This document shows, piece after piece, positions 21,781 through 58,620 of a stretch of DNA of 59,777 nucleotides. The position numbers and the translations under genes were made by a program. Where the stretch lies: positions 1 to 59,777 of the forward strand of contig VMTK01000061.1 in NCBI GenBank assembly GCA_013791585.1. The letters are read 5' to 3'. The notes below the pieces were generated by a model, which saw only the letters and a program-made list of their open reading frames with translations, did no database searches and was not told the origin of the DNA. Position 1 is the stretch's first letter, and the number at the start of each line of letters is the position of its first letter. Source of the stretch: Candidatus Falkowbacteria bacterium (GTDB lineage Bacteria > Patescibacteriota > Patescibacteriia > Patescibacteriales > VMTK01).

Positions 21781-22029
21781 ATGGAACAAGAAATAAAACC
21801 AAATTCAATATATACAACCAATGAAACGCAAAAGCTGTTAAAAATAAGCAACAGCACTATTAAGCGCATGCTTAAAAACGGCTTGCTAAAAGCCAACAAA
21901 GTAGGCGGGCAATATAGAATCCTTGGAAAGGAAATCTTGCGCTTAGTATCGCCTGAAGCGGAAAAGAAAGCGGTAAAATCATATTTAAAAATAAAAAAGC
22001 AAGTTGTGGATAAAATTAATAAATGGTGA
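21781..22029 (+). CDS. small helix-turn-helix DNA-binding protein (excisionase/MerR-type HTH)
   Basis: 82 aa. TTNETQKLLKISNSTIKRMLKNGLLKANKVGGQYRI. Confidence 0.7.
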   Translation: MEQEIKPNSIYTTNETQKLLKISNSTIKRMLKNGLLKANKVGGQYRILGKEILRLVSPEAEKKAVKSYLKIKKQVVDKINKW

Positions 22030-22090
22030 AATATAATCCGAATCTACGAATTTTATCCAAATACTGCAAATTACTACAAATTAAAACTAT

Positions 22091-23179
22091 ATGAGAAAAG
22101 CATTGATAACGGGCATAACAGGCCAAGACGGCTCGTATTTATCTGAATTACTATTGGCTAAAGGATATGAAGTCCATGGCATTATTAGGCGCGCCAGCAG
22201 TTTTAACACCGGCCGCATTGATCATCTCTACCAAGCTCCTTGTGAAAATAAAAGAAAATTTATTTTACATTATGGCGACCTGACTGACGCGACTAGTATT
22301 ATTAGGCTGATCAAAAAAATACAGCCGGAAGAAATATATAATCTGGGAGCGCAAAGCCATGTTAAAGTATCTTTTGAATCGCCTGAATACACCGCGAATT
22401 CAGACGCTATCGGAACGCTTCGCATGCTTGAAGCCATAAGATTGTTAGGATTAGAGCGCAAAACAAAATTTTATCAAGCTTCAACCTCTGAAATGTTTGG
22501 AGCCACTCCCCCGCCGCAAGATGAAAATTCTAAATTTTATCCAAGAAGCCCATACGGCGTCGCGAAGCTTTATTCCCACTGGATAACAATAAATTATCGC
22601 GAGGCATATAACATATTTGCTGTTAGCGGAATACTTTTTAACCATGAATCTCCAAGGCGGGGAGAAACTTTTGTGACTAAAAAAATAACAAGGGCTGCCG
22701 CGAGAATAAAATTAGGATTGCAAAAAAAATTATTTCTGGGCAACCTTAACTCAAAACGAGACTGGGGCCACGCGAAGGATTATGTTATGGCAATGCACCT
22801 TATGCTTCAGCAGGAAAAGCCCGATGATTATGTTATCGCCACGGGCAAGCAATATTCCGTCCGCGAATTTTGTGAATTCGCCTTTAAAGAACTGGGCATT
22901 GAAATAATTTGGCAAGGAGAAGGAATTTCTGAAAAAGGAATTGATAAAAGAACCAACGAAACAATAATTGAAGTTCATCCTGATTATTTTAGGCCGACTG
23001 AAGTAAGCTCTCTTCTGGGCAACCCGAAAAAAGCTAAAGAAAAATTAGAATGGAAAGCAAAAATTTCTTTTGAAGATCTGGTTAAAGAAATGGTCCAATG
23101 CGATTTAGAAGAAGCCAGAAGAGAATTGCACCTAAAAAATCACGGTTTTAAAATAAATAATAAACATGAAACCCATTAG
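22091..23179 (+). CDS. gmd: GDP-mannose 4,6-dehydratase
   Basis: 362 aa. [44 protein letters not shown], and the rest of the sequence is also typical of Gmd. Confidence 0.95.
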
Positions 23180-23234
23180 ATATTAAAAAATACCGCGGAA
23201 ACATAATTAAAATAATTTAACAAGTATAAATTCA

Positions 23235-24199
23235 ATGGATACTATGGGAAAAAAATCATCTAACGGGTTAAATAAAAATTCTAAAATTTATGTCGCGGGC
23301 CACCGCGGATTAGTCGGCTCGGCAATAATCCGAAGTCTTATCAAGCAAGGATATAATAATCTAATAACTAAAACCAGGCAAGAGTTAAATTTGCTTGACG
23401 CGCAAACTGTTGCTGAATTTTTTAAGAAAGAAAAGCCGGAATATATATTTCTGGCCGCTGCCAAAGTCGGAGGAATTATGGCAAACAAAACTTATCCGGC
23501 TGAATTTATTTTTGAAAATTTGACAATACAAAACAACATCATCCATAACGCTTATTTGAATAAAGTAAAAAAACTTTTATTTTTGGGCAGTTCCTGCATC
23601 TACCCCAAATTATCTCCTCAGCCGATTAAAGAAGAATATCTGTTAACATTAGAACTTGAACCAACCAATAAAGCTTACGCGATAGCCAAGATCGCGGGAA
23701 TTGTTATGTGCCAATCATATAATCGCCAATACGGAACCAATTTTATTGTGGCTATGCCGACGAATCTCTACGGGCCAAATGATAATTTTAATTTAGGCAC
23801 ATCGCACGTACTCCCCGCTTTAATGAGAAAATTTCACGAAGCAAAAAAAACGATAAAAAAGAAATTGAAATCTGGGGAACCGGCGTGGCAAGAAGAGAAT
23901 TTTTGCATGTTGATGATCTGGCAAACGCATGCGTATTTTTAATGAACAATTATAATAATTCTGATATAATAAATATTGGAACAGGTGAAGATTTATCAAT
24001 AGAAGAATTAGCGGAAATTATAAGAGAGATTGTTGATTTTAAAGGTAAAATAAAATGGGACTCTTCCAAGCCGGATGGGACGCCAAGAAAATTATTAGAT
24101 GTAAACAAATTACATAAACTAGGATGGAAGCATAAAATTAATTTAGAAAAAGGTATTACAAACATCTATCAATGGTATAAAGAAAACGTAAAAATATAA
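23235..24199 (+). pseudogene. fcl: GDP-L-fucose synthase (GDP-4-keto-6-deoxymannose epimerase/reductase) split by a frameshift in an A8 tract
   Basis: The two ORFs 23235-23942 and 23885-24199 together give a full Fcl ([14 protein letters not shown] ... [22 protein letters not shown]). The frames join if the A-run at 23843-23850 had 9 A's instead of 8. Confidence 0.85.
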
Positions 24200-56677: not shown

Positions 56678-57299
56678 AATATCCTATAGTTAAATAAAAT
56701 GTCCTGCGCATGGGGATGCTTTTTCCTTTAAGCCCAAGATTTTGAAAAGTTTTAGGCGTAAACATTTCCTCGTCGCTAAATGTTAAAGTTCTGCCAAAAA
56801 ATTTATTTAGAGCGAATAGCCAACGGAAATAAAAAATATCGTAAGGCACCTCTATAAAAACACACTCCTTGGCAAGGCGCTTTTGTTCGGATATTAATTT
56901 TTTTTGCTCATTTTTATTATAATGCTCTAAAAAACCTAAAGAATAAACTAAATCAAACTTTTTTTCTCCAAAACGCCCAAGATTAAAAGCATCGCCGATT
57001 ATAAACTCGCAATCTTTGATTTGTTCAGAAGAGAACTTTATAGCTTCCGGCGAATAATCAATACCAACGCATTGAGCCGCTCCCATCTTTTTTAAATAAG
57101 ACAATGTCAACCCGGATCCAACTCCAATCTCGCAAATAGTTTTTCCTTTAACATCATAATGACCGGCAATGAATTTTGCGAAAGCTTTGGCAAAATAGTA
57201 TTTTCTGGCTAATGCCACCAACGTGTTAAAAAAAACGCTTTTATTTACATTTTCCCGCCAATATTGATTCCATTTTTTCTTATTAGTCGTATCTGGCAT
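56655..57299 (-). CDS. class I SAM-dependent methyltransferase
   Basis: 214 aa. ICEIGVGSGLTLSYL. Confidence 0.7.
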   Translation of the reverse strand: MPDTTNKKKWNQYWRENVNKSVFFNTLVALARKYYFAKAFAKFIAGHYDVKGKTICEIGVGSGLTLSYLKKMGAAQCVGIDYSPEAIKFSSEQIKDCEFIIGDAFNLGRFGEKKFDLVYSLGFLEHYNKNEQKKLISEQKRLAKECVFIEVPYDIFYFRWLFALNKFFGRTLTFSDEEMFTPKTFQNLGLKGKSIPMRRTFYLTIGYFENVCEK

Positions 57300-57301
57300 A
57301 A

Positions 57302-57934
57302 TTATTTGCTAGCTATAATAAAAATAGTAAAAAAATAATGATTTATAAATTTTGTTATTTTAAAGCCATGGCTTATAAATAAATCTTGAATTGATTTTGG
57401 AGAAAAATTATTTATATGACCGCATCTTTGCTTGTAATATTCTTGTTTTTGAATAGACCCTTTATAAAAACATTGGATGGCGAACAAGGGCCTCCAAAAA
57501 CTGAAATTAGTGTCATAAGGTACAGAGCAGATAACTTTAGCGCCGGGTTTTAAAATACGTTTAATTTCATTTAATTGAGCGCTTAAATTATCCAAATGTT
57601 CTAAGACTTCTGTAATTATCACAATGTCTGCGCTATCGCTCGGCAAACTGGTTTTATCCGCAGGAGCAACAATGATTTTATTTAATCGCCCGCTTTTCAT
57701 TGTATAATTCAATGAATCTGAATTAACATCAATCCCGATTGCCGGCGATTTACTTTCATTCCACAGAGAGTTTCCACAACCTAAATCTACAATAATTTTT
57801 GATTCAGCATAAAATTCATCCACTAAAGCTTTAGTTTGCATATTGCGCGATTTATGAAACCAAGCGCCTAAAAAATTTTTTGATTCTATCTGCTGATCAT
57901 AAAAATCGCTTGGTGTTTGTTCGTAATTTATCAT
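57302..57934 (-). CDS. class I SAM-dependent methyltransferase
   Basis: 210 aa. IVDLGCGNSLW, IVIITEVLEHL. Confidence 0.7.
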   Translation of the reverse strand: MINYEQTPSDFYDQQIESKNFLGAWFHKSRNMQTKALVDEFYAESKIIVDLGCGNSLWNESKSPAIGIDVNSDSLNYTMKSGRLNKIIVAPADKTSLPSDSADIVIITEVLEHLDNLSAQLNEIKRILKPGAKVICSVPYDTNFSFWRPLFAIQCFYKGSIQKQEYYKQRCGHINNFSPKSIQDLFISHGFKITKFINHYFFTIFIIASK

Positions 57935-58620
57935 AATTTAATTTTATACAACGCGTAAGACAACAACTGTTTAAAAAATAACCAAAACTCTTTATAATTT
58001 AATTTTGATTCACTATGCTTCCGCATTCTAAAAGTGTAGGGGAATTCAATAATATTTGAATAATTGCCTTTAACTAAAATCTCAAATAGTATTTTATATC
58101 CTGTTGTTGTTAATTGGATATTCTTAATTACACTTTTTTTAATGAAAAAATAACCGCTCAACGGATCAAGGGTGTTAGTTAATCTGCTAGCTAAAAATAC
58201 GCCTATGCCAGAGATAGATCGCCGCCGCCAATTCCATTTTTCTACATGACTTTCACAATTAAAGCGGCTGCCAATAGCTATATCATATTTTAACATTGAT
58301 AAAATTAATTTATTCAAAATAGCTGGATCATGGCTTAAATCTCCGTCCATTGCTCCGACATAATCTCTGCTGGATTTTGCGAAACCTTCCAGAACAGCGC
58401 TGCCAAGCCCTAATTTGCCGGAGCGATGAATTACTTTAATTGGGTAATCTTTCGCTAATTCTTCAGCGACTAAACCCGTTTTATCCGGAGAATTATCATC
58501 TACGATTATCAATTCTAAATCAATTTTAGAATTATCTATAACTGCAAAAATCTCCTCAACTAACAAAGGTAAATTTTTTGCTTCGTTATAAGTTGGTATA
58601 ATAATAGCGGCTTTTATCAT
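57931..58620 (-). CDS. polyprenyl-phosphate sugar synthase (GT2, Dpm1/Ppm1/ArnC-like)
   Basis: 229 aa. AAIIIPTYNEAKNLPLLVEEI...ELIIVDDNSPDKTG...HRSGKLGLGSAVLEGF. Confidence 0.85.
   Translation of the reverse strand: MIKAAIIIPTYNEAKNLPLLVEEIFAVIDNSKIDLELIIVDDNSPDKTGLVAEELAKDYPIKVIHRSGKLGLGSAVLEGFAKSSRDYVGAMDGDLSHDPAILNKLILSMLKYDIAIGSRFNCESHVEKWNWRRRSISGIGVFLASRLTNTLDPLSGYFFIKKSVIKNIQLTTTGYKILFEILVKGNYSNIIEFPYTFRMRKHSESKLNYKEFWLFFKQLLSYALYKIKL

Follow-up and report, generated by a model that had tools for sequence, protein, structure and literature searches.

An ABC-transporter-type surface-glycan locus of 37 kb is confirmed in an uncultured bacterium of the Patescibacteria (candidate phyla radiation). 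It is very probable that this modular chromosomal locus directs synthesis of a polyprenyl-carried glycan with export by Wzm/Wzt, and that its radical SAM (rSAM) enzymes are part of the pathway. NCBI GCA_018899735.1 and an independent ENA assembly both contain the window, the 59,777-nucleotide stretch that was analysed, at 100% identity. A protein labelled 'Patescibacteria group bacterium' matches the 31036-32040 product at 99% identity.

The gene list was built from open reading frame calls with Pfam and NCBIfam annotation, which reproduced nearly every call, and the coordinates, of an earlier note made from the sequence. The island encodes twelve firm methyltransferases (four FkbM, one CmcI, one TIGR04325, one C-methyltransferase, and five class I), where about 13 had been counted. 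Pfam matches bear out the seven glycosyltransferases: GT10, GT11, GT4, three GT2, and one GNT-I-like. The five rSAM enzymes, all with the CxxxCxxC motif, comprise three with B12-binding and rSAM domains and two with rSAM and SPASM domains. Plus-strand genes are separated by −35 to +123 bp, leaving no space for precursor-peptide genes in the intergenic gaps. The reported ATGA overlaps are present at 29632, 30162, 44100, and 52400; that at 57931 belongs to the minus strand, and the plus strand reads TCAT there. Features described below lie on the plus strand unless the minus strand is named.

Putative initiation and cobalamin genes, and the exporter

Parts relevant to the pathway also lie beyond the coordinates of the earlier note: a WbaP-type transferase; a cobalamin riboswitch; and a fourth B12-type rSAM gene. 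The first encodes a polyprenyl-phosphate hexose-1-phosphate transferase of the WbaP/WsaP type (15906..17270; Bac_transf 209.9 bits; TIGR03025 378 against a cutoff of 296; about five transmembrane segments), likely the initiating enzyme. The riboswitch aptamer (21308..21446, minus strand) matches the full model of Rfam RF00174, positions 1-189 (E 1.4e-4; 32.7 bits against a gathering score of 31.5); some 40 nt separate it from the start codon at 21268. Directly downstream of the aptamer is a putative cobalamin-scavenging operon of four genes (17420..21268, minus strand; Pfam), encoding a 664-aa protein with an alpha/alpha-toroid and DUF4430, a 166-aa protein, a DUF4430 protein, and a DUF6580 membrane protein; cobalamin scavenging is the role we infer. 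The fourth B12-type rSAM gene (3990..5483; B12-binding 65.8 bits, Radical_SAM 77.8 bits) lies in a low-GC patch (GC 0.32-0.35) beyond the island, and its product is 30% identical to the island enzyme B12_3 by BLASTP.

A small HTH_17 (excisionase/MerR-like) DNA-binding protein heads the locus (21781..22029; 44.6 bits). The best promoter-like site, at 21746-21774, matches the consensus at 11 of 12 positions, and is a consensus match only. Module A (22091-26514) follows. The gmd gene for GDP-mannose 4,6-dehydratase (22091..23179; TIGR01472 571 bits against a cutoff of 415) is as described earlier, but the fcl gene for GDP-L-fucose synthase (23235..24199) is not intact. An A8 run near 23846-23853 marks a frameshift that splits it into two open reading frames (23235-23942 and 23885-24199) in different frames, and NF047922 matches it only over positions 2-197 of 308. 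The same sequence occurs in this region in four assemblies (L177-L180). Because fcl is frameshifted, donor supply for GT10 and GT11 and the presence of fucose in the polymer are uncertain in this strain, and the predicted fucose-containing polymer was overstated.

The exporter comprises a Wzm ABC-2 permease (24323..25150; ABC2_membrane 68.3 bits) and a Wzt ATPase (25210..26514; ABC_tran 87 bits; TagH/Wzt-type NCBIfam matches). Wzt carries a C-terminal extension of about 180 aa, for which the match to Wzt_C is weak (E 8.5e-4; 19.8 bits, cutoff 30.4). This extension may be a glycan-cap-binding domain, a weaker statement than the cap recognition first proposed.

A mobile CDP-sugar cassette

The 11-gene segment 26542-37713 is a horizontally mobile cassette. 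Conservation was scored in 25 loci in which a homologue of the 31036-32040 rSAM gene is flanked by no less than 6 kb upstream and 8 kb downstream. Five functions form the core: CDP-Glc synthase; dehydratase; RmlC; rSAM; and GT4.

The cassette opens with the two enzymes previously assigned to CDP-glucose synthesis and dehydration, both above their cutoffs: glucose-1-phosphate cytidylyltransferase (26542..27315; TIGR02623 317 bits against 300; 24 of 25 loci) and CDP-glucose 4,6-dehydratase (27346..28422; TIGR02622 474 bits against 278; 22 of 25). An NDP-4-keto-sugar 3-C-methyltransferase of the TylC3/MtmC/TcaB9 type comes next (28424..29635; Methyltransf_13 and Methyltransf_14; 16 of 25), and matches the D-mycarose 3-C-methyltransferase, PDB 4rv9, over its full length (E 3.8e-80). 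Its expected partners are present as well: an RmlC-type 3,5-epimerase (29632..30165; TIGR01221 193 bits against 156; 24 of 25) and an RmlD-type 4-ketoreductase (30162..31046; TIGR01214 271 bits against 224), whose position is taken by different SDR reductases in most related cassettes.

Beyond the rSAM gene SPASM1 are two FkbM-family methyltransferases (32041-33219 and 33232-33975; Methyltransf_21; TIGR01444 58.6 bits against 37.7), with homologues in 14 and four of the 25 loci, respectively; the accessory rSAM gene B12_1; and a GT4 glycosyltransferase (35591..36946; Glycos_transf_1 76.6 bits), which is found in every locus at 27-74% identity and would be dedicated to the cassette sugar. The final gene encodes a member of the CmcI / rhamnosyl O-methyltransferase family (36958..37713; RMNT_CmcI 298 bits; 16 of 25).

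Twitch-type radical SAM enzymes

No other gene of the cassette is as well conserved as SPASM1 (31036..32040; Radical_SAM 76 bits, SPASM 42 bits; C37xxxC41xxC44), at 66-85% identity against 26-78% for the others. Cassettes bearing it occur in Patescibacteria, an Asgard archaeon (relative at 79% identity), and Deltaproteobacteria, and its relatives fill more than 120 clusters (90%-identity) at 74-99% identity. Four cysteines are invariant (C244-x17-C262-x44-C307-x2-C310), in a gapless alignment to the auxiliary-cluster domain of BtrN (profile E 8.4e-14). Its AF2 model is poor (pLDDT 53) and adds no structural support. SPASM2 (41716..42693; Radical_SAM 64.9 bits, SPASM 47.3 bits; C38xxxC42xxC45) has BtrN as its best PDB match (E 3.6e-10), with only five C-terminal cysteines. 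In three unrelated loci its homologues (46-51% identity) have glycosyltransferases, methyltransferases, and sugar-nucleotide genes as neighbours, and one relative is a fusion with a methyltransferase.

Both proteins score above the Pfam SPASM cutoff, yet each has just four or five C-terminal cysteines, and so they are of the BtrN-like 'twitch' type, with one cluster motif, rather than full seven-cysteine SPASM enzymes. BtrN is a dehydrogenase. The twitch type of SPASM1 and SPASM2 points to oxidation or epimerisation, not to methylation.

B12-type radical SAM enzymes

Three class-B enzymes were identified, as claimed: B12_1 (33997..35613; Radical_SAM 77 bits; C237xxxC241xxC244; in 12 of 25 cassette loci); B12_2 (45824..47377; Radical_SAM 83.4 bits, B12-binding 41.9 bits; C212xxxC216xxC219); and B12_3 (52400..53875; Radical_SAM 97.7 bits, B12-binding 64.7 bits; C219xxxC223xxC226). 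The B12-binding domain of B12_1 falls under the Pfam gathering score (29.5 against 32.1 bits), and its best NCBIfam match, to the Sden_1168 family, reaches 137 bits against a cutoff of 575. The HMM check finds B12-binding or SPASM-type domains in the rSAM reading frames.

The class-B architecture predicted for B12_3 is confirmed by its Pfam match together with an AF2 model of pLDDT 88, for which Foldseek returned MgmA, AprD4, TsrM, OxsB, CysS, and TokK (TM 0.62-0.68, query-length normalised). PDB matches of B12_2 are AprD4, MgmA, TsrM, and CysS. For all three enzymes AprD4 is the best PDB sequence match and MgmA the next. AprD4 is a cobalamin-independent diol dehydratase, not a methylase, whereas MgmA is a genuine methylase. 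Similarity to AprD4 is limited to the rSAM core; the N-terminal domains align by sequence to the cobalamin binders TokK, OxsB, CysS, TsrM, and MgmA. Cobalamin binding is predicted only, and C-methylation is plausible. The earlier step from class B directly to C-methylase is not established: AprD4 is the closest PDB sequence, and no curated cutoff is reached.

B12_3 sits in a block that opens with a GT11 gene (alpha-1,2-fucosyltransferase family; 51555..52403; Glyco_transf_11 124.7 bits) and closes with its GT2 partner (53860..54891; Glycos_transf_2 119.7 bits). The order GT11-rSAM-GT2 is kept in L009, a Falkowbacteria MAG, at 46/59/47% identity, and the rSAM-GT2 pair in L010, a Sedimentisphaerales MAG (GT2 at 45%). 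In L007 the rSAM relative P0032 is fused to GT2, with a GT11 (38%) before the fusion and a GT10 about 3 kb upstream. Other relatives of B12_3 are fusions with GT4 (P0039, P0044) or with a TylF-type methyltransferase (P0076).

The alternative that the rSAM genes are mere neighbours of the glycan genes draws on the distant B12_3 homologues (27-38% identity): a glycosyltransferase lies within 10 kb in 20 of 78 (78 of 80 GTDB loci), and most have no detectable glycan neighbours, so the glycan link is restricted to the close subfamily. The synteny in 25 loci, the fusions, and the GT11-rSAM-GT2 block argue against chance adjacency. Relatives of the rSAM genes lie amid similar sugar genes or form fusions with glycosyltransferases, which places these genes in the glycan pathway.

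Remaining genes of modules C and D

Other Module C (37727-54891) genes assigned by Pfam encode: GT2 (37727-38878); two FkbM methyltransferases (38997-39749 and 47379-48353); a GT10 of the fucosyltransferase family (39776-40846), with a 45% homologue in L007 near the rSAM-GT2 fusion; three class I methyltransferases (40850-41695, 42715-43428, and 49325-50032); and a GNT-I-like GT-A glycosyltransferase (44100-45008). A TIGR04325 methyltransferase (44996-45823) scores 239.9 bits against a cutoff of 80. The doubtful thirteenth methyltransferase is a 211-aa protein (43468-44103) with weak methyltransferase-like matches (PCMT E 0.0024). Inspection of a 334-aa protein (48355-49359; 41% homologue in L098) revealed a DAD motif, and it may be a GT-A enzyme. 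The FdtA-type 3,4-ketoisomerase (50039-50464; FdtA 145 bits) and DegT-family aminotransferase (50468-51553; DegT_DnrJ_EryC1 382 bits) form the pair described before; no dTDP-glucose pathway to feed them is present in the window.

Module D (54869-59121) lies on the minus strand. It encodes a 602-aa membrane protein (54869..56677) for which hydropathy indicates about 10 transmembrane segments, followed at the C-terminus by about 200 aa of soluble domain; two class I methyltransferases (56655-57299 and 57302-57934; Pfam); a short GT2 of 229 aa (57931-58620; Pfam), which may be a polyprenyl-phosphate glycosyltransferase; and a 152-aa protein paralogous to that soluble domain (58663..59121; BLASTP 31% over 154 aa, E 1e-19). 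The membrane protein has no HMM match and a 37% homologue at the equivalent position in L009; it is a candidate GT-C-like transferase, ligase, or polymerase.

A proposed pathway

Together, these genes suggest a cell-surface glycan that would be built on a polyprenyl carrier and leave through the Wzm/Wzt ABC transporter of Module A, which also holds gmd and the frameshifted fcl. By homology, the five upstream enzymes of the cassette (Module B) would jointly produce a CDP-6-deoxy-3-C-methyl-L-hexose. SPASM1 would then act by a radical step, most likely oxidation or epimerisation, at an unactivated position of the CDP-sugar or of the transferred residue. Further decoration could come from the two FkbM methyltransferases, B12_1, and the CmcI-type O-methyltransferase, and the GT4 would transfer the sugar.

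Module C would supply the remaining chain through its GT2, GT10, GT11, and GNT-I-like transferases, its FdtA/DegT amino-sugar branch, seven further methyltransferases, SPASM2, and two B12-type rSAM enzymes. B12_3 and the GT11 and GT2 on either side of it would form a working unit, in which B12_3 probably acts on a residue added by one of the two transferases; cobalamin-dependent C-methylation is the leading candidate reaction. Module D, with its short GT2, two methyltransferases, and multi-spanning membrane protein, probably provides an extracytoplasmic transfer or modification step. Cofactor could be supplied by the riboswitch-controlled putative cobalamin-scavenging operon immediately upstream.

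This logic resembles that of ABC-transporter-dependent S-layer glycan and O-polysaccharide pathways. S-layer glycan clusters feature WbaP-type initiation, Wzm/Wzt, an O-methyl cap, low GC, and overlapping ORFs (PMC2943079). Full-text literature searches yielded no paper on a pathway such as this one, in line with the earlier view that the type had not been described. None of the five island rSAM enzymes reaches a curated NCBIfam cutoff, and their families are without any characterised member. Comparable rSAM-rich loci are found repeatedly, both on metagenome contigs and in metagenome-assembled genomes: L008 has six Radical_SAM-domain genes, and L009 has four B12-rSAM genes. The rSAM load, earlier called exceptional, is so in comparison with characterised loci, though it is not unique. 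Because the host is a Patescibacteria bacterium, an LPS O-antigen is a less likely product than a glycan of the S-layer or wall, or one linked to lipid.

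Gene content and surroundings of the island

The island holds 39 ORFs within 22091-59121. Its plus-strand genes (22091-54891; n = 33, with fcl counted once) are spaced by -35 to +123 bp, and the ATGA start/stop overlaps listed in the earlier note at 29632, 30162, 44100, and 52400 are confirmed, as is that at 57931, which lies on the minus strand. Promoter-like sites occur at chance level (82 versus 79, and 109 versus 106), and a scan of the locus found no convincing plus-strand terminator between genes; both scans are compatible with long operons and otherwise uninformative. The housekeeping flank (SecD, SecA, RseP, RRF, HPF, and holB) has a GC content of about 0.40-0.43, which drops to 0.28-0.33 from about 28 kb onward.

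Profile-HMM annotation with Pfam and NCBIfam recovers the gene list of the earlier note nearly gene by gene, including gmd, Wzm, Wzt, the RmlC-like and RmlD-like enzymes, FdtA, and DegT. Recovered glycosyltransferases are GT10, GT11, one GT4, three GT2, and one GNT-I-like enzyme. GT10 (PF00852, 53.4 bits against a gathering score of 23.9, matched in the C-terminal region at positions 47-137 only) and GT11 (PF01531, 124.7 against 23.9) belong to fucosyltransferase families, and fucose as their donor sugar is a prediction. About 13 methyltransferases had been proposed, and 12 stand: four FkbM, one CmcI, one TIGR04325 (239.9 bits; curated cutoff 80), five class I, and the separate 3-C-methyltransferase. 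The thirteenth, 43468-44103, gives no significant match. A further idea was dropped: a mycaminose-type cassette in which 49325-50032, as a TylM1-like N,N-dimethyltransferase, would act with FdtA and DegT, because 49325-50032 has no specific PDB similarity to TylM1 or DesVI.

Pfam places both an ABC-2 permease (ABC2_membrane) and its ATPase (ABC_tran) in the locus; the 39 ORFs contain no Polysacc_synt or Wzy_C match of the kind expected for a Wzx flippase or Wzy polymerase. A 602-residue protein with about ten transmembrane segments (54869-56677, minus strand) has a paralog of its C-terminal soluble domain in a 152-residue ORF (58663-59121, minus strand; 31% identity, E 1e-19). Neither protein matches any Pfam or NCBIfam family.

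To the left of the island, 5 kb upstream, lies a gene for a WbaP-type initiating transferase (15906-17270). A cobalamin riboswitch (RF00174, 32.7 bits; 21308-21446, minus strand) adjoins the island, and directly downstream of it is a four-gene operon (17420-21268, minus strand) whose products are a 664-residue alpha/alpha-toroid protein with DUF4430, a 166-residue protein, a DUF4430 protein, and a DUF6580 membrane protein. This operon is read as a putative B12-scavenging system, beside a locus with three B12-type radical SAM genes. At the right edge, which adjoins an IS (Transposase_mut) region, window positions 59153-59777 are 82% identical, in opposite orientation, to positions 16782-17840 of another assembly of the same locus (L001), where that segment flanks a MULE/Transposase_mut transposase gene. 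On this side the island is therefore bounded by an IS element, and the arrangement of that element differs between assemblies.

Contig JAHIHH010000046.1 (NCBI GCA_018899735.1) and an independent ENA assembly both match the window at 100% identity, and a 99%-identical copy of one window protein is labeled Patescibacteria. The contig of a strain 99.3% identical (GCA_018900375.1) aligns over window positions 18984-24897. The two part within wzm, at 24897, and the strain's contig finishes with a CbiJ fragment; either the island was replaced at strain level or the contig may be chimeric.

The flank has features of its own. In SecD (632-2686, minus strand), the P1 subdomains are separated by an insertion of two PPIC-type peptidyl-prolyl isomerase domains; between holB and the initiating transferase gene is the gene of a Fic/DOC-family protein (14659-15606, minus strand) that has HTH_3 at its N terminus; and an 86-bp inverted repeat (94% identity; 13371-13456 and 17312-17397) flanks the holB, Fic, and WbaP-type transferase genes.

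GDP-fucose synthesis and the exporter

The proposed gmd/fcl pair survives by half: gmd is intact (571 bits), but fcl (23235-24199) is split by a frameshift at GCAAAAAAAACG, in an A8 run near 23846-23853, and matches NF047922 with 318 bits (cutoff 500) over positions 2-197 of 308 only. Four assemblies, each from a different sample and one of them that of the 99.3%-identical strain, share this frameshifted fcl. A normal Fcl would result from a -1 slip or from an A9 tract. Phase variation and transcriptional slippage are candidate explanations of the frameshift, as is a pseudogene that has become fixed.

The C-terminal extension of Wzt, a candidate carbohydrate-binding domain that might read a terminal cap, matches Wzt_C (PF14524) below threshold (19.8 bits, E 8.5e-4, positions 6-131 of 143; gathering score 30.4), and the C-terminal extension has no sequence match in the PDB. 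BLASTP similarity to the Wzt_C-bearing Wzt of the related locus L008 is confined to the ATPase domain.

The twitch radical SAM enzymes

All five radical SAM proteins of the island, together with one encoded at 3990-5483, contain CxxxCxxC and match PF04055 with 64.9-97.7 bits (gathering score 29.5). The island proteins are old paralogs (22-30% identity), not recent duplicates. Since no NCBIfam match of the five reaches its cutoff, they are given no family name.

Two of the five had been called SPASM enzymes: SPASM1 (31036-32040) and SPASM2 (41716-42693), both on the plus strand. The Pfam SPASM domain is there (PF13186; 42.2 and 47.3 bits, respectively; gathering score 21.5), but the seven-cysteine motif C-x9-15-G-x4-C ... 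C-x2-C-x5-C-x3-C ... C is absent from both. After the core, SPASM1 has only four cysteines (C244, C262, C307, and C310), and SPASM2 has five (C241, C259, C260, C302, and C306). The pattern invariant in the SPASM1 family, C244-x12-G-x4-C262...C307-x2-C310, gives a gapless alignment with the BtrN auxiliary-cluster domain (profile E 8.4e-14), with C262, C307, and C310 matching the BtrN cysteines in 'pCFeDf' and 'lCknC'. The spacing is identical to that of the BtrN ligands C169, C187, C232, and C235. With only four or five C-terminal cysteines, aligned in SPASM1 with those of BtrN, both enzymes are therefore assigned to the twitch type, with one auxiliary cluster.

BtrN is also the best PDB match of both enzymes, with MoaA, DesII, and BlsE matched as well; similarity between the SPASM1 and BtrN cores is weak (15.8 bits over an N-terminal stretch). 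As BtrN is the nearest solved relative, a BtrN-like two-electron oxidation of a secondary alcohol on an aminocyclitol or sugar is one candidate reaction for SPASM1. Epimerization, as catalyzed by the radical SAM epimerases NeoN and HygY, is equally possible. An AF2 model of SPASM1, built from a 12-sequence alignment, reached a pLDDT of only 53 and was for that reason left out of the fold search.

Relatives of SPASM2 (46-51% identity) occur in glycan surroundings in three unrelated loci, next to genes for glycosyltransferases, FkbM, TylF, and class I methyltransferases, a C-methyltransferase, DegT, and NTP/RmlC proteins; one relative is fused to a methyltransferase. For SPASM2 itself, gene callers choose an internal Met that gives 300 residues (P0241) in place of the 325-residue ORF; CxxxCxxC begins at residue 38 of the long form, near the callers' start.

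A recurrent CDP-hexose cassette

SPASM1 belongs to a cassette that begins with CDP-hexose synthesis. Its first two enzymes, the glucose-1-phosphate cytidylyltransferase and the CDP-glucose 4,6-dehydratase, exceed the curated cutoffs of their equivalogs (TIGR02623, 317.1 versus 300.25; TIGR02622, 473.8 versus 278.45). The next, the 3-C-methyltransferase, has the Zn-ribbon, class I methyltransferase, and C-terminal domains of its family. It matches Methyltransf_13 (59 bits) and Methyltransf_14 (180 bits) in Pfam and aligns over its full length with PDB entry 4rv9 (residues 3-402 versus 13-415, E 3.8e-80); its 3-C regiochemistry is predicted.

More than 120 clusters are 74-99% identical to SPASM1, among them proteins from Deltaproteobacteria and, at 79%, from an Asgard (Promethearchaeota) archaeon. 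The four annotated contexts share one arrangement, with the early genes slightly shuffled: cytidylyltransferase; 4,6-dehydratase; C-methyltransferase; RmlC; reductase; the twitch radical SAM enzyme; one or two methyltransferases; GT4; and CmcI, with optional places for a B12-type radical SAM gene just before the twitch gene and just before GT4. A metagenome scan for SPASM1 added 80 loci at 66-85% identity. Gene counts were taken at the 25 cassette loci with enough flank, three of which are the same contig type: a GT4 homolog is present at all 25, cytidylyltransferase and RmlC homologs at 24 each, the 4,6-dehydratase at 22, the C-methyltransferase and CmcI at 16 each, and a B12_1-like radical SAM enzyme at 12. 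The best-conserved gene of the cassette is that for SPASM1. Beyond the tight clade, full-length relatives form a continuum; at E<=1e-30 it comprises 625 representative clusters.

Homology predicts a CDP-6-deoxy-3-C-methyl-L-hexose as the product of the cassette's first five enzymes. SPASM1 would then carry out a radical step at an unactivated position, the CmcI and FkbM enzymes would probably O-methylate the sugar, and GT4 would transfer it. Cassettes that lack the C-methyltransferase often have a DegT-like gene, so SPASM1 does not depend on the 3-C-methyl group. Examples are L143, L144, L148, L152, L153, L161, and L171, in which the DegT-family gene, usually present, is 25-28% identical to that of the window. 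It could encode an E1/RfbH-type 3-dehydrase, making the cassette sugar of these variants a 3,6-dideoxy sugar.

Many of these enzyme types (3-C-methyltransferase, FdtA/DegT, CmcI, FkbM, and BtrN- and AprD4-like radical SAM enzymes) have characterized relatives in antibiotic pathways. The island, or at least the cassette within it (26542-37713), might accordingly make not a cell-surface polymer but a glycosylated small molecule of secondary metabolism, for instance a glycolipid or an antibiotic resembling the aminoglycosides; the likeness to antibiotic deoxysugar tailoring would then be literal. We consider this improbable. Wzm and Wzt lie within the locus and the WbaP-type transferase close by; the locus encodes seven or more glycosyltransferases as well as a multi-spanning membrane protein; the 39 ORFs include no aglycone, cyclitol, PKS, or NRPS gene; and related cassettes adjoin genes for a Wzx-type flippase or Wzm/Wzt. 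Patescibacteria, with their small genomes, are not known as producers of such metabolites.

The B12-type radical SAM enzymes and their partners

Three B12-type radical SAM enzymes had been described, B12_1 (33997-35613), B12_2 (45824-47377), and B12_3 (52400-53875). The B12-binding domain (PF02310, gathering score 32.1) is clear in B12_3 (64.7 bits) and B12_2 (41.9); in B12_1 it falls marginally below threshold (29.5 bits, E 7e-7) and is borderline. A fourth B12-binding radical SAM protein, 30% identical to B12_3, is encoded outside the island (3990-5483, plus strand). Its gene adjoins that of a protein with four transmembrane segments (2934-3734, plus strand). The two genes share a patch of low GC (0.32-0.35) that has SecD on one side and the NUDIX/SecA genes on the other.

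A protein identical to B12_3 is encoded on at least 23 contigs, which come from several samples. Among its close relatives (54-59% identity), the order GT11, radical SAM, GT2 is kept in a Falkowbacteria MAG, followed by a 37% homolog of the 602-residue membrane protein, and the radical SAM-GT2 pair is kept in a Sedimentisphaerales MAG. At the related locus L007, the two are a single 843-residue protein, with GT11 directly before it and GT10 about 3 kb upstream. In further relatives the fusion partner is GT4 or, in P0076, a TylF-type methyltransferase. The glycosyltransferase fusions thus reveal partner proteins of the radical SAM enzymes. L008 (GCA_041643015.1) is a Wzm/Wzt locus, Wzt_C-positive, with six genes encoding a Radical_SAM domain.

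L008, L009 (GCA_043801965.1), and L007 are other metagenome contigs or MAGs whose glycan loci have four to six radical SAM genes. L009 also encodes a carbamoyltransferase, an asparagine-synthase-like protein, and a PMT_2 GT-C protein; in L007, transketolase-like genes adjoin glycosyltransferases.

The glycan link does not extend to the whole B12_3 superfamily. Distant relatives (27-38% identity) make up 78 of the 80 GTDB loci, and a glycosyltransferase was detected near only 20 of them; adding L010 and L011, which are closer, brings the total to 22 of 80, a lower bound, neighbors having been sought by single-sequence phmmer. The link is therefore limited to the close subfamily.

Might the radical SAM genes be passengers: RiPP maturases, cofactor-maturation enzymes, or unrelated genes inserted in a hypervariable glycan locus? 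The island is low in GC and flanked by an IS element, and the SPASM/twitch and B12-type families include many RiPP maturases; NCBIfam matches of that kind are present, all below cutoff. Nonetheless, this explanation is very improbable. Synteny with sugar-nucleotide and glycosyltransferase genes is kept across phyla and domains, covalent fusions join radical SAM enzymes to GT2, GT4, and methyltransferase domains, and the nearest solved twitch relatives (BtrN, DesII, and BlsE) act on sugars or cyclitols. The radical SAM genes overlap their neighbors, and there is no intergenic room for precursor peptides; this lack of room, with the conserved glycan synteny, is why the RiPP reading is rejected. 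The functional tie to glycan genes that the earlier note had proposed is borne out, through conserved context in related genomes and through fusions, for all three enzymes tested (SPASM1, B12_3, and SPASM2): each belongs to the glycan pathway.

Methylation or other radical chemistry

Methylation is the leading candidate reaction for the B12-type enzymes. The AF2 model of B12_3 (pLDDT 88) matches the folds of MgmA, AprD4, TsrM, OxsB, CysS, and TokK. This confirms a class-B architecture and does not separate methylases from AprD4-type enzymes; AprD4 is a diol dehydratase that shares the class B fold and is cobalamin-independent.

Some or all of the B12-type enzymes may instead perform other radical sugar chemistry in a locus otherwise as described: 1,2-diol dehydration leading to deoxygenation, as with AprD4; ring contraction or rearrangement, as with HpnJ or OxsB; or cyclization, as with BchE. 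The products would be unusual deoxy or rearranged sugars in place of extra C-methyl groups. AprD4 is the top PDB sequence match of B12_1, B12_2, and B12_3 (E 1.6e-28, 5.9e-11, and 2.3e-14) and the second structural match of B12_3, although the sequence similarity is confined to the radical SAM core, whereas at the N terminus the domains of the three enzymes align with proteins that do bind cobalamin. The best structural match is MgmA, a cobalamin-dependent C-methylase. Among top NCBIfam matches, BchE, HpnJ, and ApyD are as frequent as methylases, all below cutoff; 12 conventional methyltransferases are already in the locus; and the methyltransferase fusion of P0076 fits either reading. No sequence motif marks cobalamin binding, and cobalamin-dependent chemistry is favored on indirect hints: the N-terminal alignments, the adjacent riboswitch, and the putative uptake operon. 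Non-methylase chemistry, for at least some of the enzymes, is a real possibility that we nevertheless lean against, and methylation remains preferred.

Known systems compared

By logic, the closest known systems depend on ABC transporters: the S-layer glycan (slg) clusters known from Geobacillus stearothermophilus NRS 2004/3a and from Paenibacillus alvei, and the O-polysaccharide loci of E. coli O8/O9a and Klebsiella. They share with the island a WbaP-type initiating transferase plus Wzm/Wzt, many glycosyltransferases, in-cluster nucleotide-sugar genes, low GC, and overlapping ORFs (PMC2943079). In such clusters Wzt is proposed to read a methyl-type cap; in the island, where the Wzt_C match is sub-threshold, cap reading is a possibility. 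No radical SAM enzyme is reported from the characterized clusters (PMC2943079). Such clusters are not known to have more than one or two methyltransferases; the island has five radical SAM and 12-13 methyltransferase genes, nearly half of its genes. No Wzy_C-type ligase or oligosaccharyltransferase is recognizable in the island.

The 3-C-methyltransferase is a full-length homolog (E 1e-69 to 4e-80) of those for the antibiotic deoxysugars mycarose (TylC3/MtmC), tetronitrose (TcaB9), and kijanose (KijD1). The logic on a 4-keto-6-deoxy sugar is also the same, with an epimerase and a 4-ketoreductase following the C-methyltransferase. The island differs in using CDP rather than dTDP, in its surface-glycan setting, and in the radical SAM extension. 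Vinelose, a CDP-linked 6-deoxy-3-C-methyl-2-O-methyl-L-talose, is reported to have been isolated from Azotobacter vinelandii in the 1960s. Its genes are not known to have been assigned.

For the twitch enzymes, the main comparator is BtrN, the 2-deoxy-scyllo-inosamine dehydrogenase of butirosin synthesis, beside the epimerases NeoN and HygY, DesII, and BlsE. BtrN and the island enzymes share a radical SAM core and a single auxiliary [4Fe-4S] motif with the same cysteine spacing; outside the auxiliary domain the similarity is weak (E 1e-7 to 1e-14). The island proteins are about 70 residues longer and have four additional invariant cysteines (C75, C110, C178, and C216). They presumably act on a CDP-6-deoxyhexose or on a residue of the glycan, and BtrN on an aminocyclitol.

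The class B enzymes (the sugar and phosphonate methylases GenK, GenD1, and Fom3, together with MgmA, TokK, CysS, and TsrM, and the look-alike AprD4) share with the island proteins a Rossmann-like B12 domain, a radical SAM barrel, and CxxxCxxC; GenK, GenD1, and Fom3 are likened to them by class description, not by sequence. The fold agrees at TM 0.62-0.68, normalized by query length, with 16-19% identity. At about 490-540 residues, the island enzymes fall with the BchE/HpnJ/MgmA/AprD4 branch and not with the longer TokK/CysS type.

HpnI, a GT2 enzyme, reportedly adds a sugar that HpnJ, a B12-type radical SAM enzyme, then rearranges in the hopanoid side chain (work ascribed to Schmerk et al. 2015). 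HpnJ is among the top three NCBIfam matches of B12_1, B12_2, and B12_3 (110-183 bits against a cutoff of 578), and a similar GT2-radical SAM pairing is kept, even fused, among B12_3 relatives. The island differs in that it has no hopanoid genes and its partners include a GT11 fucosyltransferase-family enzyme. By analogy, HpnI/HpnJ may serve as a useful precedent for the GT2-radical SAM unit.

Implications

The radical SAM-bearing glycan locus is genuine, recurs among uncultured anaerobes, and is open to in vitro tests. A full-text literature search, largely outside subscription journals, found no such surface-glycan locus described, which is weak negative evidence. All radical SAM sugar-tailoring enzymes characterized so far (BtrN, DesII, GenK, GenD1, AprD4, and NeoN) belong to antibiotic pathways; the island presents these enzyme classes as fixed parts of cell-surface glycan loci.

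Radical SAM chemistry as a widespread, so far undescribed layer of prokaryotic surface-glycan biosynthesis is a joint reading that we judge evenly poised between right and wrong. It would have the cassette twitch enzyme (about 334 residues) catalyze a new reaction on a CDP-6-deoxyhexose or on the transferred residue. The resulting sugar would be common to anaerobic Bacteria and Archaea, including Asgard, through horizontal cassette transfer; and in lipid-linked glycans, unactivated carbons would be methylated or rearranged by B12-type enzymes paired with or fused to GT2 or GT4.

The cassette is kept at 66-85% identity across phyla, and across domains in at least one Asgard-archaeon genome. It offers a tractable target for enzymology: five upstream enzymes of known type should provide a substrate, and one radical SAM enzyme should act on their product. 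The predicted new sugars would lie on the surface of Patescibacteria, a group in which little is known of envelope chemistry or of attachment to hosts, and the cobalamin dependence of a genome-reduced symbiont would be linked to the decoration of its surface glycan.
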